Positions 545 to 35,720 of a DNA stretch of 40,019 bases are shown one piece after another. Each line of letters begins with the position of its first letter. Within the stretch, counting starts at the first letter, position 1. Source of the stretch: Macrostomum lignano (Eukaryota); contig NIVC01004636.1 in assembly GCA_002269645.1 (NCBI GenBank), forward strand, positions 1 through 40,019, given 5' to 3'. A model generated the notes under the pieces. The model was given only the letters and a program-made list of their open reading frames with translations, did no database searches and was not told the origin of the DNA. Position numbers and translations under genes: made by a program.

Positions 545-548
545 GAAA
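545..548. other. Target-site duplication, left copy (GAAA)
   Basis: GAAA directly before the LTR start matches GAAA at 13484-13487. Confidence 0.85.
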
Positions 549-2533
549 TGATGGGTTTCGACCTTCGACTCCTTGTTAGGGAAGCCTTCGGGCCTCAGGC
601 TCAGAAATAAATCAATTAGAGACCTGGCCCCCCACTCCTGTCAGATGGTCAGCCCCATGGTAGCTTGATCGTGTGGCGAGCAGTCTAGGTCCTATAGCTA
701 AGAGAGGGACAGCGAGAGACGAGCAGGGAGAATTTTGAAAGTAGAAATTAGCTAATCCGCAGATCAACTAACTTGCTGCCACCAGCCCGTACGCCCTGGC
801 TCACCACACCGGGACTCTCGAAATCGGGCTTCCGACTAGAAGGGGCTTTGCACTTACCTGCCAACTAGTGTCTTTTTGCTGTCAATCTCGAAGTCATAGC
901 CGATGTTAAGGGACACTGCTGGGACTAGATCGCGTTGGCCATGCAGGTACAGAGGGGACTTGTGCAGGGGATTCTTGCGGTGGCGAGTCTATGGGGTAGC
1001 TACCTGTACTATTACATTGCTAAATACGAAGATATGTACTTTTGGCCTTCAACGCGCCAACTAGCCTCTCATAGCGCTGATGATAGACTGACTCGAACTT
1101 CAGAGACCGCATGATTCATTTACCCGAGCCGCTTGGCTACCCTAGAGTGCACAAAGTACATCTCTGGCGCCGATCCTGCACTTCTGGCAGTTTTGCTCAC
1201 TGATTTGATAGATTGGTCGACTGAGAACTGCCTTGCCATTGGTCCACTGTGACCGGCGCCTACTAGCCTAGCTACTCATCTGAGCCATCGGCGAACAAAG
1301 AAATAAAACCGACAAAAATAACTGTTAGATTTAACCTTCTCCTTAGTTCACTTCACACCTCGGATTGAATTGGAGTCTTAGACTACTAGCAGTATTATTG
1401 AATGATTCCTGCCTCAGCAACAGCACTACTGAACAAAATGAGCAAAAGTGTGCGCCTAATTCAGCTACTGCAACAGGGGACAGATAAGGGATCACCCAAT
1501 CAAGCAAGTCTAGGTAGCCTCTCACCCAACCAATCAGAAACTCAACAGCCGGAGACCAGGTAATCCACAGTGACCGAATCGGCTCGATGCTCTGCAGCTG
1601 TAGACTCGGAATGATGCTGTCACACTCTTCGCTGTTAGCTAGCAGGTGATGCTCTTAACTTGATGTTCGCTGCTGTCGACCGGGGGACTCGTCCTTGATG
1701 ATGATGGGGGAAGTCGCAATCCGGGGATCAAGAAACGACGGTCGTGCTCTGGGAACCAGAAGTTGCGCGCTGGGCCCGAGCCAAAGTTGAGTCCGAGCGG
1801 GCCAAAAACTCCGGTTTAAATAGCCGCCAACTGGACCGCAGTTTGTTATAATGGAACACGTCGATTCTGATTGGCTGAGCCGTTTTGTTAAAATGAGCGC
1901 CGAATTTTCTGATTGGCTAAGCTTGTTGCTACCCAGAATCACGTGACCGAGAGATCCTATCAGTTCCCACAGGGTCGTAAAAAGATGACAGGTGCGGCCA
2001 TAAATCACTCAAAATCGCAACAAAATGATTTATGACTTTTCGCGTAGGATTGACAGAAATTAATGAAAAAATATACATTAGAAAGCTCTTATTAAATAGA
2101 AAGTGAAGATAATGAAGAGAAATCGCTAATCGCTAATCCCAAGGTACTTTTAGGGGTAAAACGCATAGCTGTCAAAGCTGTCACACGCTTGAGTGAACCG
2201 AACAATAGGCTCTGACCTCGTAAATCTTGATGGCCTGTCAAGATAATGAGAAAAAAGCTACCGCCCGCATCCTCTCAGACCATCTGGCGCCCGCTTCAAC
2301 ACTGAGTGAGGCGCAGGTGGCTGTCAGACCAACTTTGAAAGCGATGATTTATGACCCAAAAAGCTGCGCCTATGTTATTATGACTACTAGTATGACCAGA
2401 CATTATATCTAGTATAGTTTCTATGAAAATTCGCAGAAAAAGGATAAAAATGCCCATTGCCCACTGTTAGTAGGCAAGTAAGTTTAGAGCCCATGTGCTA
2501 GCGCGGGATTTGGGAAAAAGTGCGTCCTCATCA
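549..2533 (-). repeat. 3' LTR (1985 bp)
   Basis: By eye it differs from 11498-13483 only by three 1-nt indels (near 566, 1268, 2198). The ORF track gives identical peptides in both copies. Confidence 0.97.
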
Positions 2534-2536
2534 TAT

Positions 2537-2549
2537 GCCCCCCCTATTT
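2537..2549 (-). other. Polypurine tract
   Basis: Minus strand AAATAGGGGGGGC, 3 nt before the TGATG start of the 3' LTR. Confidence 0.8.
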
Positions 2550-4469
2550 GTGAGTTGATCGCAGATTAACTCAAAAACAAAGAAGAAAAATGAGCGCAGT
2601 TTTGTACAAAATCGCAGCTAGCGCATCGAAAAGAGTAGTAAAAATAAAACTAGTTACTCACAAATAGGTATTAAAAATATTACACTAATACGCATCCCAA
2701 GAATGGAAATCCCAAAAGAGAAAGAAATTGGGGAAAGGGAAGGATTTGAAGAAAGAAAGGGATCAAGAGAAAGGTGCTTCAACTAAATATTGCATTGCAA
2801 ATACAGTATCAAGTGCGAGATACACGTAAGGGGATAATAGACAGATAAATTATTGCCACGCGAGAAGACAAAATTCAAAATGTGCGAAATGGAATAAACA
2901 GCGCATGTTCGATGAGACTAAGCTTCATTGTTCGCGTTCGAGTCAGTCTCGATTCTACCTGTTAAGCCTCTTGATGGCTTATTTCCTTCGCCGCGCGGCC
3001 GACCCGAGCCAGGATGGGCGAGGAGCTTGGGAAATGCGTTGCACATTCTCCCCTCCCGCCTGTGGAGTCCACGTGCCTGGGGTTGCCGTGCTCATCTGGC
3101 GGCAGCCGACGAATGGCGACCCTCAGAGGATTAAGGGACCCTCGAGTCATCCTTGCTGACTGGCTGAGACGCTGCTGGGGGAGAATGATCTCAACCACCT
3201 CGAGTTCGCAGGGAGATAAAAGCGACTGACCACTCAGGTCATCCACAAATTATGATTTTCATCTTCAAATCCTGCGTCAGCCTCCGATTTGCCAGCCAGC
3301 GCTTCGCCACCACCACCTTTGCTGATTTTGCACCAAGCCAGGCCAGCCACTGCAGACCTCCGATCTTCAACTGGTAAGTCTCATCTCAGCTCTGTGATTC
3401 TCTACTGTACACGTTACTCAATCGGATAATCCCAGACCCATCCCACAGTCTCAGCAGCCTTCAGGGTACACTCCCTCCTACTCACTTGCCCATTCAGTGC
3501 TGTGCAGATAGGTACTTTAAGATGTATTATTAATAGAGTTTCAGATAAGAGGCAGAATAATTTTGAGCACTAGTGTTAAATTTTAAAAGTTCTTTCAAAG
3601 ATTTTTGTCTTCAAGACTCCGCTTCAATGGCATTCACTTTCAAATTTAATTCACACAATCCTATTTTGTTTTACACTCAGTATTACTACATATCAGTAGT
3701 ATCGCACGGCCGCGAAATTCAGCTTAAATTTATCACTCCTAATTTGGTTTAGCAATTCGTATTAATTCAGGTGGACCATTCGTACCTTATTTAAGACTTT
3801 TATTAGTTTAATTATGCCTAGTATTCTTCTATATTAATGACCTAATTCGCTCATCGTTGATCTCTTTCTTCGCCTTGGCTCAGTGAGTTTAGTAACACGA
3901 GAAGTCCTAAATTTCAGTTTCAAACTTAACTCAAACCAAGGTTCAATTTCACATTTAATTTCAAAAGCACTCACGACAAATTAAGCACAATAAGCAAGCA
4001 GTCACATTCACGCACACAACATATTGTTTCCGCCACCATTTGATGAACCTTTTACGCAAAAAAATGAGCAAAGAAGAAATTAGGCAAGACAAAATAAGCA
4101 ATGACACAACAGAGAGAGAAATACGCGGAGATAAATAGTGGCACAACATTGAGTATAAATATAAAAAACGCATTCTCAAAGCACCGGGGGGTATTTACAG
4201 GGGAATCGGGGGTGCAAAAGACAGTATGAGCAAGCAATAGTTCACGCAATAAGGGGATATATTTACAAGGGGCATAGCAGCACAAAAAAAGAAAAATAGG
4301 GGGTTCGAAATTTGCTCCGGCATGACAATAACTTGGTTAAAAGTTGAACATGTAAATATAGGTACTATTCGTTAACTAATCACTTGAGCCGAACGACTTA
4401 ATCGAAAGATTACGTAAAATATTTTCCCTAATTAAAAGATTGTTTACATCAGTCCCTCCCTTGGTCTTC

Positions 4470-5636
4470 TCACTCTTGGTTGGCATTCTGGCTTCGCTGA
4501 TGCCTCACCGCCAGGCTCAACTCCCAAATCTTCTGGGCGGCTTCAAGAGCAGCAGACCTCTTGAGGACCGAACGCGGGGGGTCCTCGCCGCGGTGGAAAA
4601 CGTCGTTGAGCAGGTCGTAAGCGAGCCTCAAACGGGGGTACCCGGCCCCGCGCACCAACTCATTGTAAAGCTGGTTTCGCTCGAGCTGCTCGGGCGAAAG
4701 CAGCCAAAACCGCTCGTTAGCCGGGACCACAATCAGACGCTCGCGCAGGCGCTGGGGGCAGGGCTGCAGGAGCGGCAGGCCGCCCCAGTTCTCGGGGGCC
4801 TCGCCGACTGCCAGTATCAGCACCGTCGAGTCCAGACAGTCTTGCAGTGCCAGCTGTGCGGCCCATTCGCCCGCTTGGTGAGGCGCGTAGATGAGCAGCG
4901 CTGGCGTGAGGTCGGTAGCCAGCGCAAACAGACCATCATGGAAGACGATAGTATCGGCGCCGCGTAAGCCTAGCACTAGTCGGGCGTACATGACCATCTG
5001 TAGAGCCGTCAGATGGACTTCGTGCCGGCTCAACATGGAGATGATGTTCGCCGCTGCAGCCGGAGTCAGGCCACGATCGACCGCCGCCGGATAGGGGAAG
5101 GCGAGCAGCTGGGCCAGGTACATGACCGCCCGCCCCGGGTTGTTCAGCTGTAGCGGGGCCAGCCGCTGGATTAGATTTGGCCACCTCGTCGCTGTCGGCC
5201 ATGGGCCCGCACTTTCAACCTCGCGGAAGTGTCGGCTCAGCGCGTCGTAGGCCTCGCCGATGATCACGCGCCATAGGCTGTTGTCGACGTCGGCCCAGGA
5301 GTAGGCCAGCTCCGTGCCCATCAATGTTGCCGCTCGAGCGTGGGCAGCTCTTAAGGAGTGTCTCTCATCGATAGCTTGCTGGGCAGCGGGTAGCAGGGTG
5401 TAGTGCAAGGGACCCTCTCCATGAAGGCGGGTGCCCAGCTGTCCCAGCACTCGCTCCTTCGCATTTTGCTCAAGCTGTTCGTGTCTCTCTTCGCCTTCCA
5501 GGTGCCGTAGACCACTCAGGATGGCCGGACGCTCTCCCGTGCTCCCCAGCCCGCCTCGGCTGTGCGGACTGGTCGCGCCGGACGACAGCGGTGAGTGCAC
5601 TTCTTCTTTGATAGCGCTAACCAAGAAGGCTTCCAT
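4470..5636 (-). CDS. Unknown intact ORF3 of the LTR element (388 aa from the first ATG)
   Basis: Long, GC-rich, stop-free ORF with normal protein composition, where pol/env would lie. No signal peptide, TM segment, YXDD, DDE or zinc motif recognised. Confidence 0.7.
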   Translation of the reverse strand: MEAFLVSAIKEEVHSPLSSGATSPHSRGGLGSTGERPAILSGLRHLEGEERHEQLEQNAKERVLGQLGTRLHGEGPLHYTLLPAAQQAIDERHSLRAAHARAATLMGTELAYSWADVDNSLWRVIIGEAYDALSRHFREVESAGPWPTATRWPNLIQRLAPLQLNNPGRAVMYLAQLLAFPYPAAVDRGLTPAAAANIISMLSRHEVHLTALQMVMYARLVLGLRGADTIVFHDGLFALATDLTPALLIYAPHQAGEWAAQLALQDCLDSTVLILAVGEAPENWGGLPLLQPCPQRLRERLIVVPANERFWLLSPEQLERNQLYNELVRGAGYPRLRLAYDLLNDVFHRGEDPPRSVLKRSAALEAAQKIWELSLAVRHQRSQNANQE

Positions 5637-6134
5637 GTCTTCGCAGATGCACAAAGCTCTCACTTATAAACAGAGGATCACAGCTAGCAGAATGCTTTTA
5701 GCTCGCAGAAAGTCAAATTGAATTACAGTCAAAGTTTTCCTTTTTGTATTCGGAAAAAATCAGATAACAGTAAACAGAGGGTGGGGCGACTCCACGTCAG
5801 AGTCACCCTCAGATTGATACAAATCATTTGGGGCGCATAGTAGAAAAAACTCATTATGAGGGCCAATAAAACATTTGAGCTCAACAGACCGTCAATTTTT
5901 TGCAAGAGGAACAAAAAACGAGGGTTACAATGGGGGTCGAAATGTGCATGGGGTGCATGGGGGGGGGGAAGGAGAACGGGAGCGGGGACCAGAGGAGGGA
6001 AGAGATGAGGGATCCCTGCAGACTAGCTGGGGGACTAAAAATAGCTACGGCGGATTTCCCCAAGTGAAGAATTGGCTCCTCAAAGTTATGTTAATTGGAC
6101 TATGAACTCAAAGCGATTCAGAATTTCAAGCTAA

Positions 6135-6731
6135 TCCCAATCCTGGCAGCTTCAATCCCTCTCTACCCCTAACCTGCGTCTACCTTTCCACCTCACACCC
6201 GCAGAGGGCGCGCTAATTCTACAACAGAGCCTTATCCTGGGCAAGAGGCTCATTCATGGCGCATTCTCAGTCCTGCCAACAGAGGTGATAGCCCATGGAG
6301 ACGGCCAGCTGACACTCCGGCCCCGAGCCGGGACTGCTGCTCCGCCTCTAATAGAGGCCACCTTTGCTGACCGCGGCGTGGCTGGACCCGCCCGGAGTGG
6401 AGGAGGTCGCAGCAGCGGTCGCAGTCGGGGTCGGGGCACGCCCAGTAGCAGCGGCACCCGCCCAACTACCGCGGGCACCTCTACCCCCATCGGACACTAC
6501 AGTGCTAGCACACCGGAGGCCTCATCAATTTCCGCCTTGGACTCCATTCAAGAGGAGCCCTCAGGTGCGCCTTCCGGTGCTCAACCTGCGGCACCCGCAA
6601 CAGCTGACCTCTCGGTGCGGCTGCAGCAACACGCTAGCGCCTTGCAGGCCTCTGACCATGGCTGCCCTGAACACGACCGCACCGTCGAGTTGTTAATGCA
6701 GGCGGCCGCCCAGCTCAGCGGTGCCAACTAA
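6135..6731 (+). CDS. Antisense open frame in the element (198 codons; S/G/R/P/A-rich with a helical C-terminus); start uncertain
   Basis: Stop-free 6135-6731. Candidate acceptor cccgcag at 6204; in-frame ATG at 6102 is cut by TAA at 6132. Followed by an AT-rich 3' region and AATAAA at 7031. Confidence 0.4.
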   Translation, partial: SQSWQLQSLSTPNLRLPFHLTPAEGALILQQSLILGKRLIHGAFSVLPTEVIAHGDGQLTLRPRAGTAAPPLIEATFADRGVAGPARSGGGRSSGRSRGRGTPSSSGTRPTTAGTSTPIGHYSASTPEASSISALDSIQEEPSGAPSGAQPAAPATADLSVRLQQHASALQASDHGCPEHDRTVELLMQAAAQLSGAN

Positions 6732-7106
6732 TTCTCTATTCATGTGCCTAAGGGTTTCTGCCCTTTACCACACCACTTTCACCTTTCATTTGTCCATAAA
6801 ATCATTATCGTATTAATTGCTTTTAGATAACTTCCTAATGCCTTTCTTAATTATATAAAACGCTGCACCAGTCTATAGTATCTGTTCCTACCATTAATTC
6901 TATTAGCTATTTTAAATATACCATTTCAGCGTTAACTGCTTCATTTATAATTTGTTCTAAGAGCTTCCAATTGTTCTAAGAGCTTCATCTATTTCCTCTA
7001 TACGTCCAACCTGTCATAATACTTTCACGAAATAAACCGGATCTAGCAGAGGATAAGCAAGGGGAAAAGCGAATCGGGCCCCCGACCTTCAGAGTTCTTC
7101 AGGAAG

Positions 7107-7612
7107 TCAACAAAATGGGAGCATTTGCCCCAATACTAATAGATTTCTAGTGTGGTAATCCAACACAGCAGGTGCTGCTGCGAGGAAAGAGTTGCCCAAC
7201 AGAGGCCTCGTGCCGGGGTCACTGGCAATCAGGAACATGACAGGCATGGTCTCACTGCCTAAGATGACTGTCAGCTTAGATTGACCCACAATCTCCAGTC
7301 TATGCCCGCTATAGGAATAGATAGAAACTGTAGGGGCCTCCAACCTGTCCATATCATCGTTAGTGGCCGCCACAAAGTCTTTGAAGGGTAAGATGGAAAC
7401 TGCCGACCCAGAATCGATTAAGATTCGGACTGGCAATCTCTCTACTTGAACTTTTACATAAACATCAGCTCGAGAGCTTCTAAATGATACAGACTTCCTA
7501 GGGACAATGAAATCGGGTACAAGATTCATTTTCCTTTTGCCACTGTTTACTAAATTTGCCCTTGAAAGTACAGAAGAGGGGTGAGTGTGGGCGCCACCCA
7601 TCCCTACTCTCA
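7107..7612 (-). CDS. Retroviral-type aspartic protease, in the -1 frame relative to gag, ending in a clean stop
   Basis: ILIDSGSAVSIL active site and a C-terminal LLGNSFL...VLDY motif. The -1 frame is open across the gag stop. An in-frame ATG also exists at 7601. Confidence 0.88.
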
Positions 7613-7619
7613 GTTTTCC
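7577..7619 (-). promoter_or_regulatory. Putative -1 programmed ribosomal frameshift signal
   Basis: G_GAA_AAC immediately before the gag TGA, then a 7-nt spacer, then hairpin AGGGAUGGGUG-(GCGCCCA)-CACUCACCCCU (11 bp with one A-C mismatch and one G-U pair). Confidence 0.7.
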
Positions 7620-8779
7620 GAACCGGCTGGCCCAGACGGAAGATATAAAGAGGGCCGCTGTCTCTGCGTTCCAGGCGCCGGGGTTGGCGGGGGGCTCCAG
7701 CTCTCTTCTCCTACTCTGCTCTCTCCCTGGGTAGGAACACGCAAGGGAGGCGGGCGCGCGCGTGCACTGTTGCGCAACTGCGGGGGCCGGTAAATCTCAG
7801 TTTTTTCAATCTGCTTGGCCGGGTCACCATAAATCGCATTCTGCCTCTGTAGCACGGGCTTCTCTGACAGATTTTGAGATGAGGGGGGCGGAGACTTGCC
7901 CTCAGGCGGTTGGCTAGCTCGCTCAGTATCTTCTACCACTGTGAGGTCTCCCTCCCAATGATCTGAGTGGCTTATCATGGCCCGATCGATCTTCTCCGCT
8001 ACCTGACTCATAGCGCCGTAAATCTTGCCGACGGTTTCATCAAGGCTGTTTTGGCGCTGCTGTAAATCTGTCAATGCCTCTTCTACTTCCCTTCCTTCCT
8101 CTGACTCCAGCATGCGGACCCACCTGCGCTGATATTCTCTGTCGCTGGGGCGATTTTGATCTCTGTTTCTCTCGTCCCTACGCTGATCATATCTGGGCTG
8201 GTCTCGCGCTAAGCGCCGGGAAATCTCATCTGCCTCTTGGAGATTCTGCTGAGCTGCCAGCACTTCATCAATGCTGCGAAACTGTTGCCCTAGCAGCGAC
8301 TTGCGCACATCTGGGGCAATATCAGCCGTTTCCAAGTAGGCGAAGATCACCTCCGACTCTAACTGTCTAGGACTCATGTCGGGGTAAGCAGAAGCTATCA
8401 CACTACGCACCATGGCCGAGTAGGCGTGGTGATTCTGGCCTGCTTTCTGTTTCAAATTCCGGACTTTGTTCCTCTTCGCTAATTCTGAACTGGCCTCTCC
8501 TACCTGGCGACCTAACCTTTCTATGAATTCTTCGAAGTCAAGGCCGGGATGGAGGGCAATAGCAAGACTCTGCAGATCTGGGGGGAGGAGCGAGATTACT
8601 GTGCTCTTCTTCTGCTCTCTGTCCCTAATCTCTTCAGATCTGAGTTTGAATTTGACTCTGTCAACCCACTGTGGGAAGCAGGATTCTGCTGGGTTGAATT
8701 TCTCAACGCTAATCTTGACACTCTGTGTCTCTCTGCCCAATCCAATAGCTGCAAGGGCTTGCGCTAATTGGGCTGCCAT
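7610..8779 (-). CDS. gag: Gag-like capsid protein (389 aa)
   Basis: Intact ORF first after the PBS and leader; ATG in gacATGG context. Retrotransposon Gag-type N-terminal region (VEKFNP...QWVDRVKFKL...VISLLP), R/D-rich and coiled-coil segments, no CCHC knuckle. Confidence 0.8.
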   Translation of the reverse strand: MAAQLAQALAAIGLGRETQSVKISVEKFNPAESCFPQWVDRVKFKLRSEEIRDREQKKSTVISLLPPDLQSLAIALHPGLDFEEFIERLGRQVGEASSELAKRNKVRNLKQKAGQNHHAYSAMVRSVIASAYPDMSPRQLESEVIFAYLETADIAPDVRKSLLGQQFRSIDEVLAAQQNLQEADEISRRLARDQPRYDQRRDERNRDQNRPSDREYQRRWVRMLESEEGREVEEALTDLQQRQNSLDETVGKIYGAMSQVAEKIDRAMISHSDHWEGDLTVVEDTERASQPPEGKSPPPSSQNLSEKPVLQRQNAIYGDPAKQIEKTEIYRPPQLRNSARARPPPLRVPTQGESRVGEESWSPPPTPAPGTQRQRPSLYLPSGPAGSEN

Positions 8780-11477
8780 GTCGGCGGCTTGGGGTTGAGG
8801 TGGGGCTCTCTGCGGTGATGATCCGCACTCTGATCGCTCGGGGAGCCTGAGCCCTGGGACGAAAAATCGCAGGCGGCTGCGGCGGCGGCTGCTGATCCGT
8901 TCCTATTCCCTCTACCTCTTCTCCCTCTACCTCCTGACTTACTGGTACTGGAATTACATGTTTCCATAGTTCGGGCACAACACCAGTTGCCGGGACAGAA
9001 CTAAAGGATGAAAATCTGAACCGGGGCGGAAAGAATGAATGCAATTGGCTACTAGCCGAAATTGGGTGTCTGCTTCAAAGCAAGACAATGGCAATGAATC
9101 GAATCGAATGGGGGAAGGGGGGGGAGATTGTGCAAAAAGCCTAACTGGGGTAGGGTTTTGACACAAGTAAGCAATGGGGGGTTGAGCGCCGCGAGTTGGG
9201 GAGCTCAAAGCAAAAACAATAAATTACAAGCAAAAATAAGCAAAGTGCATAAAACACGCAAATAAGCAAAAGATACGCGATCTATATACAAAAAGCGTAC
9301 AATACGAGCGCGGGGCTTGCGATAATGATCGCAAACACAGCACAAAAAATGAAAAAATACGCAAAAACCAACGAAGCGGAAACTTCACTTATTCCACTCA
9401 CACCGCAGTCACACTTGACTCAAATTTTTCACACCTAAAATCCTTCTGTCTCTGCCTTGAATCCGATCTCGGATTTTCTCGAATCGCTGCTTTTAAACTC
9501 ACTGGTTCTCAACTGGGCTAAGGCCACAGCTTTCCGCAGGCTACTACAGTCTCAGTCTCTCTTTCTCTCTGAGCGGCTCTTTTTGCTTCCGAATAATTTT
9601 GATGGGCTAGTAAATCATGGAGGGTCTCATCAGCTCTCATTAGTCTAAATTGCAGGCGCCAATATGTGGGCACCTCATGTGTATCAGAGCTCTCCTGCGT
9701 GGTATCGCCACTAGGAAACCGTCCGGGTGCTGCTACGGCTAGACAGATTCACAATCCCCATCAAGGCTGATCTTTTAGCGGAACTTGGACGTCTGACCCA
9801 GCGCGCCCAGTGGCCCCTCTGTGTAGCTTTCGTCAGCATTGACCGGTGAGGGCGGATTACACCTAATAAACGATACTCGCGAACAGACAGATAATACACA
9901 AGGAGTTAAGCAGGTCCGTAGTGTAGTGTTCACTCCGCAACAAAACCTTATGGCACGGTCCCTAAGAATTTTGATCATAGAAAAAGCTACGGGCAGCAGG
10001 AAAGTTTGTCAAATATTATGACCCTACGTTATCGGGTCGGGTATTTTTATAGCGGCGAACCACAGAAGACATCTGTGTCTTGAGTCGGTAGAGTCTGTCC
10101 AGACAAAGCTGCGCTCCCCTCCTCTTGCTATCATAAAAATGAATAGCCACGGCGTTTTCTGCTCTCTGCAGAATCGTTAACCAGAGCGGTAGCTGGAATT
10201 CGCACATACTACCATGGCACCGTGTGGGTAATTCTCTCCGCTTTCCTTACTGTATTTACATTAGATACCCCTCCGATTCTAAGAAAGAACCGAAAGGGCA
10301 AAAGCAAACTTCCAAACCCTAAATTCCGCAACCAGGAAATTTACTTGTGCACTGGCAAACTGTACTACTGAAAGTAATACCTACACACTTCCCAGACTCC
10401 TAGGCTAAGCAGATGGTAAATGTACGAACTTAAAGTAACTTCAGACCTCACAATTCTGTACCCAAACCCAAAGTAGCGTGGCTGTTCTCGCGTTCCGGTA
10501 GCCATCAACCCCAGACATATTTTTCAGGACATGGATGTCTGACCCAGCGCATCCAGAGGCCCAACGGCACAGCACTTGCCATTGTTAGCCGGAATACCGA
10601 GAATTGCAGTGGGAATTTGAGCTCTCCGTTGCCACTTAAAGCGATTTATACCACCAAAGCCCGAAAAGCGGACAACAATTCGTGAGAAGCACTCAGATAG
10701 AACACCCCGATTTAAATCGAAATGATACTATAATCACACAGTACGCTAATCCGACTGTCCCGTACTAATCTGCTCCAGAGTATAACCTTTGAACCCAAAA
10801 CCCGTGAGGCCCTGCGTATGAAACCAAGGCTTCGCACATCCAAAAAGCTGCCTGATTCTAAATTTTGCAAACAAGACAAAAACTACGAGCGCTGTCAGCA
10901 TTCTATAATGAACGTTTTGGCCGAGGAAGCATCATCATTCGGATAATGGCCTCTTGTCTACACGACAAAAATTAATAGCTTAATTTCGAGTGATCAGTTC
11001 GAAACTTTTCTGTTTAGCAAAAGTACAAGAACTATCCTAAGTCTCTATTTTCCGCATAATTAGCTGGCTGAAATCAAAACTGGGGGAACTAAGCAGAGAG
11101 CCTAGATAACTGATCAAGCTGAGAGAGTTGTCTGTGCGGGGTTGATTTTTTTTATATGCTCTGGCTTTTTGAATTTTTATAATTTTTTTTTTTGGTTGAT
11201 TTTTTGAATAGGCATGCATTTAATGATAAGCAATTCATACTAGTAATTTTTTTGGTTCCAGTAGCATAAATTTTTTGTGCATTTTTGGACTCTCATAATT
11301 CAGACTTGAAAAGCTATCGCAGCTGACTACTTACAGTAATCTAATAAGAAACCTAAATTCCCAATTTTGAAATCTAAACGGCGCAACTCGATTTTATTAT
11401 TCTGTCACAATTTGCCATTTACCAGCCATCACTACCGGTGAGCACTTTACCACTTCCTACCGGCTAGTGTTTACCAT

Positions 11478-11495
11478 ATCCCACCGCTGCCACCA
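11478..11495 (-). other. Primer-binding site complementary to tRNA-Leu (AAG/UAG-type)
   Basis: Minus strand TGGTGGCAGCGGTGGGAT, 2 nt from the LTR. The plus strand ATCCCACCGCTGCCACCA matches the remembered 3' end (with CCA) of metazoan tRNA-Leu. Confidence 0.9.
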
Positions 11496-11497
11496 TT

Positions 11498-13483
11498 TGA
11501 TGGGTTTCGACCTTCGGACTCCTTGTTAGGGAAGCCTTCGGGCCTCAGGCTCAGAAATAAATCAATTAGAGACCTGGCCCCCCACTCCTGTCAGATGGTC
11601 AGCCCCATGGTAGCTTGATCGTGTGGCGAGCAGTCTAGGTCCTATAGCTAAGAGAGGGACAGCGAGAGACGAGCAGGGAGAATTTTGAAAGTAGAAATTA
11701 GCTAATCCGCAGATCAACTAACTTGCTGCCACCAGCCCGTACGCCCTGGCTCACCACACCGGGACTCTCGAAATCGGGCTTCCGACTAGAAGGGGCTTTG
11801 CACTTACCTGCCAACTAGTGTCTTTTTGCTGTCAATCTCGAAGTCATAGCCGATGTTAAGGGACACTGCTGGGACTAGATCGCGTTGGCCATGCAGGTAC
11901 AGAGGGGACTTGTGCAGGGGATTCTTGCGGTGGCGAGTCTATGGGGTAGCTACCTGTACTATTACATTGCTAAATACGAAGATATGTACTTTTGGCCTTC
12001 AACGCGCCAACTAGCCTCTCATAGCGCTGATGATAGACTGACTCGAACTTCAGAGACCGCATGATTCATTTACCCGAGCCGCTTGGCTACCCTAGAGTGC
12101 ACAAAGTACATCTCTGGCGCCGATCCTGCACTTCTGGCAGTTTTGCTCACTGATTTGATAGATTGGTCGACTGAGAACTGCCTTGCCATTGGTCCACTGT
12201 GACCGGCGCCTACTAGCTAGCTACTCATCTGAGCCATCGGCGAACAAAGAAATAAAACCGACAAAAATAACTGTTAGATTTAACCTTCTCCTTAGTTCAC
12301 TTCACACCTCGGATTGAATTGGAGTCTTAGACTACTAGCAGTATTATTGAATGATTCCTGCCTCAGCAACAGCACTACTGAACAAAATGAGCAAAAGTGT
12401 GCGCCTAATTCAGCTACTGCAACAGGGGACAGATAAGGGATCACCCAATCAAGCAAGTCTAGGTAGCCTCTCACCCAACCAATCAGAAACTCAACAGCCG
12501 GAGACCAGGTAATCCACAGTGACCGAATCGGCTCGATGCTCTGCAGCTGTAGACTCGGAATGATGCTGTCACACTCTTCGCTGTTAGCTAGCAGGTGATG
12601 CTCTTAACTTGATGTTCGCTGCTGTCGACCGGGGGACTCGTCCTTGATGATGATGGGGGAAGTCGCAATCCGGGGATCAAGAAACGACGGTCGTGCTCTG
12701 GGAACCAGAAGTTGCGCGCTGGGCCCGAGCCAAAGTTGAGTCCGAGCGGGCCAAAAACTCCGGTTTAAATAGCCGCCAACTGGACCGCAGTTTGTTATAA
12801 TGGAACACGTCGATTCTGATTGGCTGAGCCGTTTTGTTAAAATGAGCGCCGAATTTTCTGATTGGCTAAGCTTGTTGCTACCCAGAATCACGTGACCGAG
12901 AGATCCTATCAGTTCCCACAGGGTCGTAAAAAGATGACAGGTGCGGCCATAAATCACTCAAAATCGCAACAAAATGATTTATGACTTTTCGCGTAGGATT
13001 GACAGAAATTAATGAAAAAATATACATTAGAAAGCTCTTATTAAATAGAAAGTGAAGATAATGAAGAGAAATCGCTAATCGCTAATCCCAAGGTACTTTT
13101 AGGGGTAAAACGCATAGCTGTCAAAGCTGTCACACGCTTGAGTGAACACGAACAATAGGCTCTGACCTCGTAAATCTTGATGGCCTGTCAAGATAATGAG
13201 AAAAAAGCTACCGCCCGCATCCTCTCAGACCATCTGGCGCCCGCTTCAACACTGAGTGAGGCGCAGGTGGCTGTCAGACCAACTTTGAAAGCGATGATTT
13301 ATGACCCAAAAAGCTGCGCCTATGTTATTATGACTACTAGTATGACCAGACATTATATCTAGTATAGTTTCTATGAAAATTCGCAGAAAAAGGATAAAAA
13401 TGCCCATTGCCCACTGTTAGTAGGCAAGTAAGTTTAGAGCCCATGTGCTAGCGCGGGATTTGGGAAAAAGTGCGTCCTCATCA
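11498..13483 (-). repeat. 5' LTR (1986 bp)
   Basis: Second copy of the LTR; on the minus strand it is followed by AA and then the PBS. Confidence 0.97.
12816..12895 (-). promoter_or_regulatory. LTR U3 promoter motifs: two AGCCAATCAG CCAAT boxes and a TCACGTGA E-box
   Basis: ctgattggct at 12816 and 12858, tcacgtga at 12888; the same cluster is at 1867-1946 in the other LTR. The position fits U3 of a minus-strand element. Confidence 0.55.
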
Positions 13484-13487
13484 GAAA
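13484..13487. other. Target-site duplication, right copy (GAAA)
   Basis: Directly after the terminal TCA; matches 545-548. Confidence 0.85.
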
Positions 13488-14240: not shown

Positions 14241-21147
<6,907 letters not shown>

Positions 21148-33277: not shown

Positions 33278-34930
33278 TTAAATCGGCCTAATGCCAACCA
33301 GTTTTCTAAGCTGCTCAAAAATCATAAAAGTGATAACAGTGTGCGGCCCGATCCGCATCCAGTTCGGCACGAATCCTTTATAGAGGCCGGTCAGACCTTC
33401 GGTCCTGATGGCGGCAGCGGCGCAAGAGAACGCATTGGAATAGGCGGCTCCACGAAGGCCCACCGTGTCCTGGTTCATCACCCGGGTCTTCACTACATCC
33501 AATGGTGAGGTTGTGATGGCGCACATCAGCCCGGCGAACATGCTGGCTAGAAAGTGCAAAGGCAGGCCCTCTTTGAGCAGGCCTCTGCTCAGCATGGTGT
33601 GCTTGAAGTGATCGTAGGATGGCACCTGCATTGATGAGGGATCTTGTGTCTTAATGTGGAGTGCTGACCTGACTCTGACTCTGACATCCTCAAAAACACC
33701 AAATCTGAATAAAACATACAATTGACCCATATAAGACACAAAATCTGACTGATAAACACACTAAATTTTACCTATAAACACAGCATATGACTAATAATAA
33801 ACACAAAATCTGACCCATAAACACAAAATCTGACCTATAAACACAAAAACTGACCCATAAACACAAAAATGACCTATAAACACAAATAACGTGACTGATA
33901 ATAAATACACTAAACCTAACCCATAAATACACTAAATCCGTCTCATAAAAAACACACTTAACCTGTCCCATAAACACACTAAATCTGTCCCATAAACACA
34001 CTAAAACGGACCCATAAACACACTAAAACTGACCCATAAACACACTAAAACTGACCCATAAACACACTAAAACTGTCCCATAAACACACTAAAACGGACC
34101 CATAAACACACTAAAACTGACCCATAAACACACTAAATCCGTCCCATAATAAACACACTAAATCTGACCCATAGACACACTAAATCTGTACTATAAACAC
34201 TAAAACTGAACCATAATAAATAAACACTAAATCTGTCCCATAATAAACACACTTAACCTGTCCCATAAACACACTAAACCTGTCCCACAAACACACTAAG
34301 TCTGACCGATAAACACACCAATCTGACCCATAAACACCCTAAATCTGACCCAGCCTAACCCAAACCAAGCAGCAGACTGACCTGAGTAGCGGTGACAACA
34401 GCGGCCCGAGCTACAGTAGGCCCGATGCCTTTGTACAGCGCAGGCACGCCGCCCTCCGCATAGATACTAACAAAAGCGTGCCAGGTGCCGCGGTACCTGG
34501 CCCCGGACTCGAACGCCTGCATTCGAACTTTCACTAAATCCGTAGGCGTAGCCACAGCGCTACCCAGCACGCCGGTGACAGCGCCCGAACAGATTTTCTT
34601 CCACAACGAGAAGTTGGCCGGATCGGTCTCCCCGAACAGCCGCTTGACAGGCTCGTACAGGCCCACCCGGATGGCCCCGTAGCCGCCATCGCGCATCATC
34701 GACGGCACGACGCCTTTGTACAGACCGCGAAGGCCTTCGTTGCGGACCACGGTGGCCAGGCCGCGAATGAAACCGGCGTAGCGAGCGCTGCTCGTCCGGT
34801 TGGCTGCTTCGCCTTGGATCTGCAGGCGAATCTTCACCACGTCTACAGGATTGGTGACCACCGCCGCCGTCAGGTTGGAGCAGCCGGCCAGGCCCACCCG
34901 GACCCAGTCGCTTTCCGGCTGCTGCTGCTG
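33278..34930 (-). CDS. Mitochondrial carrier (SLC25), uncoupling-protein/ucpB-like. Exons 34930-34382 and 33625-33278; start exon not found
   Basis: Three PX[DE]XX[KR] signatures (PVDVVK, PTDLVK, PLDVVK); ATQ|VPSYDHFK junction is phase 0 GT-AG; GFVPNWMRIGPHTVITF; AATAAA just after the stop. Confidence 0.9.
33715..34352. repeat. ~22-bp minisatellite AAACACACTAAAACTGACCCAT (carrier intron)
   Basis: Direct reading. Confidence 0.93.
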
Positions 34931-34959
34931 CTGCGGGTTCACGATAATAGCAGCACCGT

Positions 34960-35720
34960 ATCAATCTATCAGCCTAGCCGTCTACTAAATATCAACTTAT
35001 CAATCTATCAGCCTAGCCGTCTACTAAATATCAACTTATCAATCTATCAGCCTAGCCGTCTACTAAATATCAACTTATCAATCTATCAGCCTAGCCGTCT
35101 ACTAAATATCAACTTATCAATCTATCAACCTAGCCGTCTACTAAATATCAACTTATCAATCTATCAACCTAGCCGTCTACTAAATATCAACTTATCAATC
35201 TATCAACCTAGCCGTCTACTAAATATCAACTTATCAATCTATCAACCTAGCCGTCTACTAAATATCAACTTATCAATCTATCAGCCTAGCCGTCTACTAA
35301 ATATCAACTTATCAATCTATCAGCCTAGCCGTCTACTAAATATCAACTTATCAATCTATCAGCCTAGCCGTCTACTAAATATCAACTTATCAATCTATCA
35401 ACCTAGCCGTCTACTAAATATCAACTTATCAATCTATCAACCTAGCCGTCTACTAAATATCAACTTATCAATCTATTAACCTAGCCGTCTACTAAATATC
35501 AACTTATCAATCTATCAACCTAGCCGTCTACTAAATATCAACTTATCAATCTATCAGCCTAGCCGTCTACTAAATATCAACTTATCAATCTATTAACCTA
35601 GCCGTCTACTAAATATCAACTTATCAATCTATCAGCCTAGCCGTCTACTAAATATCAACTAATCAATCTATCAAAATAGACATTTACTAAATATCAACTT
35701 ATCAATCTCAACTTATCAAT
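34960..35720. repeat. 39-bp array ATCAATCTATCAGCCTAGCCGTCTACTAAATATCAACTT, ~19 copies
   Basis: Direct reading. Confidence 0.97.

Follow-up and report, generated by a model that had tools for sequence, protein, structure and literature searches.

The open reading frame ORF3 (4470..5636, minus strand), which encodes 388 amino acids, is a functional accessory gene under purifying selection. It resides in a gypsy-type LTR element that spans positions 549-13483 on the minus strand of the window, i.e., of the whole stretch of 40,019 nucleotides analysed here. This element carries gag and an aspartic protease, and neither RT nor integrase was found within it by Pfam searches or by reading of the sequence. 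Related elements carry RT, RNase H and integrase and lack the protease, and the same two layouts recur in a second family, named family B here, the window element being a member of family A. We consider it likely that these elements form a split two-element architecture, with a gag-protease half and a protease-less pol half. For the whole explanation, in which the halves are interdependent and ORF3 would serve in trans as a helper with a catalytically dead SGNH fold, we see the balance as even.

The accessory gene and the element around it

ORF3 starts with ATG and is free of stop codons, so that the uninterrupted ORF described in the original prediction is borne out. The stop-free frame comprises 397 codons, compared to a median of 146 and a maximum of 320 codons for the longest such frame in each of 200 shuffled versions of the element's interior. 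The four motifs named earlier (TIVFHD, LLIYAP, VLILAVG and RLIVVP) are all found in the protein. The earlier assignment to the pol/env slot is right in terms of position, as ORF3 lies downstream of gag and protease, with an antisense exon between protease and ORF3. It was also correct to set the protein apart from Env: the highest hydropathy of any 19-residue window is 1.37, and neither a signal peptide nor a transmembrane anchor of the Env type is observed. No Pfam family matches ORF3, in agreement with the statement that its family is not recognisable, and no known retroelement domain was matched by sequence. With a pI of 6.2 and 4 lysines the protein is not basic.

The original prediction proposed a comparison of dN/dS among copies, which we carried out by the method of Nei-Gojobori and which demonstrates purifying selection. 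Against the copy on contig G000:C2406, ORF3 yields a dN/dS of 0.096 (388 codons, dS 0.75, p 1e-50), and six further pairs of diverged copies range from 0.09 to 0.19. Two near-identical copies give 0.25-0.28, and the ratio is undefined for one identical copy. The low value holds uniformly along the gene, with 0.08-0.12 in each of four segments. For the pair with G000:C2406, gag and protease both show a dN/dS of 0.19 and the antisense frame, likewise under selection, 0.21; the ORF3 of family B shows 0.10.

The ORF3 of family A matches 16 contigs in G000, 13 of which hold the gene body and three the tail only. Three of the 13 body loci are whole and unbroken, three have one frame break, and seven are cut or deleted. 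Internal deletion has removed ORF3 from 6 of the 16 gag copies in family A, and the gene is, therefore, dispensable in cis. The family B homologue has 449 residues, occupies the same position in its element and is 24-25% identical to ORF3 of family A. The alignment scores of 105 and 110 exceed shuffle maxima of 66 and 59, respectively, such that none of 500 shuffles reaches either score. It matches 35 contigs, 21 of them unbroken over the 348-residue query.

Between subfamilies, the cassette of ORF3 and antisense frame (window 4100-6990) is approximately 78% identical and its flanks are 91-94% identical. In the pair with G000:C2406, ORF3 has a dS of 0.75 versus 0.17 for gag. The cassette is thus much older than its flanks, which points to an exchange of two old alleles of it among younger backbones.

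The element is bounded by a 3' LTR (549..2533, minus strand), which begins with TG and ends with CA, and a 5' LTR (11498..13483, minus strand). The LTRs of 1985 bases agree in 1984 of 1984 aligned bases and differ by three single-base indels; the 5' LTR is 96-97% identical to the LTRs of the pol element on G000:C3095. The flanking sequence holds a 4-bp target-site duplication, GAAA, at 545..548 and again at 13484-13487. The primer-binding site (11478..11497, minus strand), which we take to be of the tRNA-Leu type, has the same motif in family B, and a polypurine tract is located at 2534..2548 (minus strand). The gag gene, with its capsid domain (7610..8779, minus strand), is 42% identical to gag of family B and related to the gags of complete elements. 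It matches Pfam PNMA with E 0.035, and no zinc knuckle was seen in it. The conserved upstream start of gag (8967) is out of frame in the window copy and in frame in most other copies. The aspartic protease with its DSG motif (7107..7630, minus strand; Pfam gag-asp_proteas, E 6e-4) lies in the -1 frame relative to gag and is terminated by a stop codon, and a candidate slip heptamer is present at 7613-7619.

With paired TG..CA LTRs, target-site duplication, primer-binding site, polypurine tract, gag and aspartic protease, the element bears these marks of Ty3/gypsy. The order PR-RT-RH-IN is not found within a single element, as the window element lacks RT and integrase and its partner has RT-RH-IN in gypsy order without PR. 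A gag-protease element without RT and integrase corresponds to the semi-autonomous Sabrina_SA type. Two parts are held in common with the protease-less pol partner by sequence comparison: the 5' leader with the first codons (8930..11497, minus strand), which is 98% identical to L075/L076, and a 3' block (2534..4583, minus strand) that includes the last 39 codons of ORF3.

An open frame in antisense orientation (6135..6731, plus strand) is likely a 3' exon, with a pyrimidine tract and CAG ending near 6204. It has no early ATG, and the splice-acceptor-like site is kept in both subfamilies. This frame lies head to head with ORF3, the two are deleted together, and family B has a candidate counterpart of it. 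A block of 80 bases (window 5815-5895) in the spacer that separates ORF3 from the antisense exon is near-invariant between subfamilies and includes CCAAT and AATAAA. In family B, CCAAT and TATA-like boxes are located just upstream of ORF3; in family A, TATAAG or an acceptor-like site is found about 30 bases upstream. In contigs from four sequencing runs aligned to 2534-13483, no splice-type junction into ORF3 was seen, a result that does not bear on expression.

Several observations concern copy number and surroundings. The LTR (549-2533) is far more common than the interior, with 1251 candidates, 14 sampled ends with unrelated flanks, and a contig depth about 100-fold or more above that of the interior. 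The excess probably consists of many solo LTRs. A second motif resembling a primer site plus LTR end occurs at window 4030-4050 inside the 3' block, near the deletion breakpoint of one copy, and is possibly a relic junction. One element copy, in L028 (G000:C2406 past the leader), is interrupted by frames that are presumably DNA polymerase B-like and packaging-ATPase-like, a pattern that resembles a Polinton-type insertion. Outside the element, host exons occur amid many minisatellite arrays at window 15465-15860 and 33278-34960 (both minus strand), which we take to be a PH-domain-like exon and a mitochondrial-carrier-like gene, respectively.

Pol elements without protease

When the leader-LTR junction was used as query, G000:C3095 and C1757 emerged as pol partners of family A. 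LTR, leader and first codons (8930-11497) as well as the 3' block (2534-4583) are 96-98% identical to those of the window element. The partners encode a capsid-like domain, which is 25% identical to the gag of the window, followed by a linker, RT, RNase H and integrase. No protease was detected in them, either by Pfam or by tblastn with the window protease, a query that does match a complete element. In family B, the gag-protease-ORF3 and pol elements share 99% of LTR, leader and 3' block, and the pol element again has no protease. The motif D[STG]G[AS] ahead of YxDD is absent from both pols (A and B) and present in seven of seven outgroups; likewise, one outgroup pol matches four Pfam protease families and the pols of A and B match none. 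The LTRs of the two families cannot be aligned except for the primer site.

A search with RT returned 12 loci at 72% identity or more (2 in family A, 10 in family B) and the next at 49%, with 148 out of 4387 candidates scored. Eight of the 12 loci were read, one of them truncated at a contig end so that its 5' part is missing, and the other four show the same contiguous capsid-linker match. Protease loci number 15 in family A and 55 in family B. The frames that contain them do not exceed 229 codons, no such locus coincides with any of the 12 pol loci, and no RT follows behind them. Among the approximately 150 candidates scored per genome search, no copy of this clade combines protease with RT; the searches give lower bounds and may have overlooked a complete master. 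A frame break, genuine or due to assembly, occurs in each of the two near-complete pol copies that we found in family A, and three copies from family B have open frames 1503-1553 codons long.

The pols of families A and B are sisters in the tree (100/100), with RT 72% identical to each other and 49% to the next. Their capsid-like domains group together as well (99), apart from both gags. This argues for a split older than the divergence of A and B. The LTR pairs of gag-protease and pol halves are 99.4-100% identical, and hence both halves moved recently.

As nearest outgroups we find complete elements that have a protease as well as a third ORF encoding a J-domain. This third ORF with a DnaJ domain is seen at L111:7724-8599 and L128:8094-9059 (Pfam E 2e-17 and 1e-12, respectively), and also in G000:C245, C27, C1760 and C3819. 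One J-domain gypsy lineage presumably adds a chromodomain-like stretch. In further complete gypsy families, integrase is followed by distinct third ORFs, unrelated and of low complexity (L060:7272-8318, L062:1572-2810, L039:2044-2967). By phmmer, the third ORFs of complete gypsy elements in the genome, J-domain proteins and others, are not homologues of ORF3.

Proposed mechanism and its rivals

In the mechanism that we propose, segment 1, the gag-protease element, would produce Gag as well as Gag-protease, the latter likely through a -1 frameshift. The product of segment 2 would be the capsid-like domain fused to Pol, which may co-assemble with Gag and be cleaved by the segment 1 protease. Both RNAs would be copied, because LTR, primer site, leader and polypurine tract are shared, and template switching in shared particles could keep LTR and leader identical within each family. 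ORF3 is likely translated from its own subgenomic message and would assist the particle in trans by binding RNA or membranes. By analogy with known proteins we tentatively favour such a binding role, with RNA rather than lipid as the ligand, although the pI and the few lysines of ORF3 do not favour RNA binding. The most far-reaching version is an obligately two-part Ty3/gypsy lineage without any complete member, with recombining LTR and leader, in which a dead-SGNH ORF3 joins either the two RNAs or the two polyproteins in one particle. In this full form we deem it unlikely.

The main rival to a trans-acting binding helper keeps the split element and differs in the role of ORF3. The protein would be a counter-defence or host-modulating factor of any fold, e.g., an inhibitor of small-RNA silencing, and not a component of the particle. 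This is in accordance with the dispensability of ORF3 in cis, with the swapped alleles of a cassette much older than its flanks, and with the CCAAT and TATA-like boxes of family B, which suggest separate timing; sister gypsy lineages, moreover, carry J-domain proteins in the same slot. The uniformly low dN/dS along the gene, however, gives no sign of an arms race, and we regard counter-defence as a rather doubtful, if serious, reading.

A second rival denies the split. The window element would be an ordinary non- or semi-autonomous parasite and the pol elements a second parasite, both being served by a complete master that is missing from the assembly or by the protease of unrelated gypsy families. 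The genome does contain many complete gypsy families with protease, the RT search scored 148 out of 4387 candidates and thus gives a lower bound, and the two near-complete pol copies of family A are frame-broken. Against this stands the identical split in two families with unrelated LTRs. In addition, the capsid-like domains of the pols and the gags of segment 1 diverged before the families did, and RT follows none of the protease loci (15 in family A, 55 in family B). Two parasites of this kind are, in our estimation, quite unlikely, and the split architecture remains the preferred reading.

Elements with gag and protease that are semi-autonomous, as well as cooperative partnerships in wheat with one complete partner, are already described in the available parts of the literature. 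The wheat elements RLG_Sabrina_SA, RLG_WHAM and RLG_Wilma form a cooperative complex according to the accessible part of PMC9744471. As in our case, Sabrina_SA is there a gag-protease element without RT and integrase that co-evolves with a partner, and variants with extra ORFs of unknown nature exist. Wilma, in contrast, is described in the same part as fully autonomous and has only short motifs in common with its dependants. Here, the partner with RT and integrase lacks a protease, whole LTRs and leader are shared at 96-99%, the host is an animal and presumably a flatworm, and no complete copy was found. RLG_Cereba and RLG_Quinta of einkorn likewise share LTR ends and primer site, with Quinta consisting of gag and an unknown domain (PMC11302176, as far as accessible). 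The same holds for BARE1 and BARE2, of which BARE2 borrows Gag (as reported in the part of PMC9744471 available). Since Cereba and BARE1 are complete in these accounts, dependence is one-way there (PMC11302176, PMC9744471), unlike in the elements studied here.

What appears to be new is an orphan, probably dead-SGNH accessory gene inside a likely bipartite gypsy lineage, the lineage being the more surprising part. Neither a pol partner devoid of protease nor an obligately bipartite LTR element turned up in our literature search, which covered subscription papers thinly; an earlier description is possible. The main text of a preprint on flatworm LTR elements (10.1101/2024.12.18.629116), as far as accessible, is silent on non-autonomous lineages, and its supplement may list these families. 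Many RNA viruses have segmented genomes, whereas the partnerships of LTR retroelements reported in the sources at hand have one complete member. If the split is true, it would represent a natural obligate mutualism between mobile elements, kept through a divergence of A and B that left RT at 72%, gag at 42% and ORF3 at 24% identity and the LTRs unalignable. Such a split makes co-packaging and the control of the Gag:Pol ratio observable. It also points to a blind spot of annotation, where RT-based methods would call the pol half defective and overlook the half with gag, protease and ORF3.

Fold of the ORF3 protein

Two structure models of ORF3 were obtained, one from the single sequence (pLDDT 40.7) and one from an 11-row alignment (pLDDT 42.8, pTM 0.37). 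At low confidence, both agree with the original prediction of a helical N-half and a C-half of strands and helices. The helical region comprises approximately residues 36-223 (4968..5531, minus strand) and has a dN/dS of 0.08-0.10. For the C-terminal alpha/beta domain (approximately residues 226-385; 4482..4961, minus strand), structural matches, residues invariant across families and the low-confidence model point to a putative catalytically dead SGNH fold.

Residues 232-380 of the alignment-based model match EstA 3hp4 with Z 6.1 (rmsd 3.9, 141/183 aligned), followed by OatA with Z 5.2 and 5.0, 3bzw with 4.9 and 1yzf with 4.7. In a second structural comparison, 9otv (Z 5.8) and TesA 5tie (Z 5.7, rmsd 4.0, 142/181) take the top two positions. 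We take the matched entries to be SGNH proteins. Structural Z values below 8, as all of these are, may reflect merely a common arrangement, and helical structures tie with the top SGNH match (5ica, Z 6.0). The residues invariant between families A and B are DG 234-235, YxP 250-252, WAA, and AxG 276-278. Judged by eye, they presumably follow the strand ends that carry blocks I-III in SGNH proteins. On this evidence from models, we slightly favour an SGNH-like fold for the C-half.

If ORF3 is so folded, the domain is catalytically dead, as Ser, Asn and His are apparently gone from the sequence. With the register set by eye and the block definitions taken partly from PMC5408684, block I reads HDG in both families instead of the GDS serine. 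Block III reads AVGEAP in family A and ALGDVE in family B, without a shared GxND, and no DxxH of block V is common to both, since DVFH at 345-348 of family A is unmatched in B. A profile comparison of ORF3 with one host SGNH protein, used as the sole sequence, gave a probability of 0.4% and was out of register, and an OSK profile found nothing in the host genome.

The single-sequence model yields weak and mixed matches, some of them to PD-(D/E)xK nucleases, which suggests as another reading a degenerate nuclease fold used for binding of nucleic acids. EcoO109I (E 0.014), other restriction-type folds, EcoT38I (Z 5.5) and a PDDEXK_3 match in Atlas at 0.77 speak in its favour. All these matches are below significance, however, and mostly vanish in the alignment-based model, which favours SGNH over a longer span; furthermore, a D..(D/E)xK motif is not conserved, and both families have YAP at the matching strand end. 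We judge the nuclease reading improbable. The D5/SF3 helicase-like P-loop of the original prediction, inactive in that account, is the least credible fold: alternating strands and helices as well as septin Cdc11 (Z 3.1) and rows of GIMAP and Rho (E 0.7) in low-confidence models are consistent with it, but [AG]x4GK[ST] has no match in ORF3, in line with the absence of the Walker A lysine noted before, no residue invariant across families fits Walker A or B, and the best whole-domain matches are SGNH esterases, with P-loop proteins far below. Of the inactive accessory factor with NTPase fold suggested originally, the accessory gene stands by its purifying selection and the inactive enzyme fold probably holds in spirit, whereas the NTPase fold is not supported.

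Sequence searches place ORF3 apart from other proteins. Neither the single sequence nor the alignment found a homologue outside the host genome in a collection of 5.8 billion proteins, and 1.84 billion representatives gave one weak, repeat-like match (E 7e-4 over 39 residues). The best value in Atlas was 0.82, which is under Atlas's own threshold, and the C-half of family B found nothing there. PHROGs returned a single row (E 0.45), the PDB nothing usable by sequence, and metagenome and viral contigs nothing. At a threshold of E 0.001, Foldseek matched the models to nothing in the PDB or in viral libraries. The N-terminal region of the family B pol likewise matched no protein at E 1e-5, and hence the collections searched probably lack the whole element clade.

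SGNH domains in retroelements are known from other animals. Vesta LTR retrotransposons of bdelloid rotifers carry a GDSL/SGNH ORF3, and catalytically dead derivatives occur in Athena-L (accessible part of PMC5408684). As in Vesta, we observe a third ORF that is not Env, a probable SGNH fold, an invertebrate gypsy-like element and no transmembrane segment; the ORF3s of Vesta, as described in that part, retain the catalytic residues and belong to complete elements (PMC5408684). Our ORF3, in contrast, apparently lacks these residues, has a helical N-half of 220 residues and shows no detectable sequence link to Vesta. The ORF1p esterase of CR1/L2/RTEX elements (ZfL2-1), with a proposed role in RNP assembly and membrane targeting, also has its SGNH domain behind a helical self-association region (PMC3905857, in the part available). 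According to the same source, it differs in being active, with an intact triad and a basic pI of 10.8, and in belonging to non-LTR elements (PMC3905857). If the assignment to SGNH is true, ORF3 would add a dead-enzyme protein of this fold to the accessory genes captured by retroelements. A model for its possible action is offered by the OSK domain of Oskar, a host germ-plasm protein, which has an SGNH-like fold without catalytic residues and binds RNA, as stated in the accessible part of PMC5785220.
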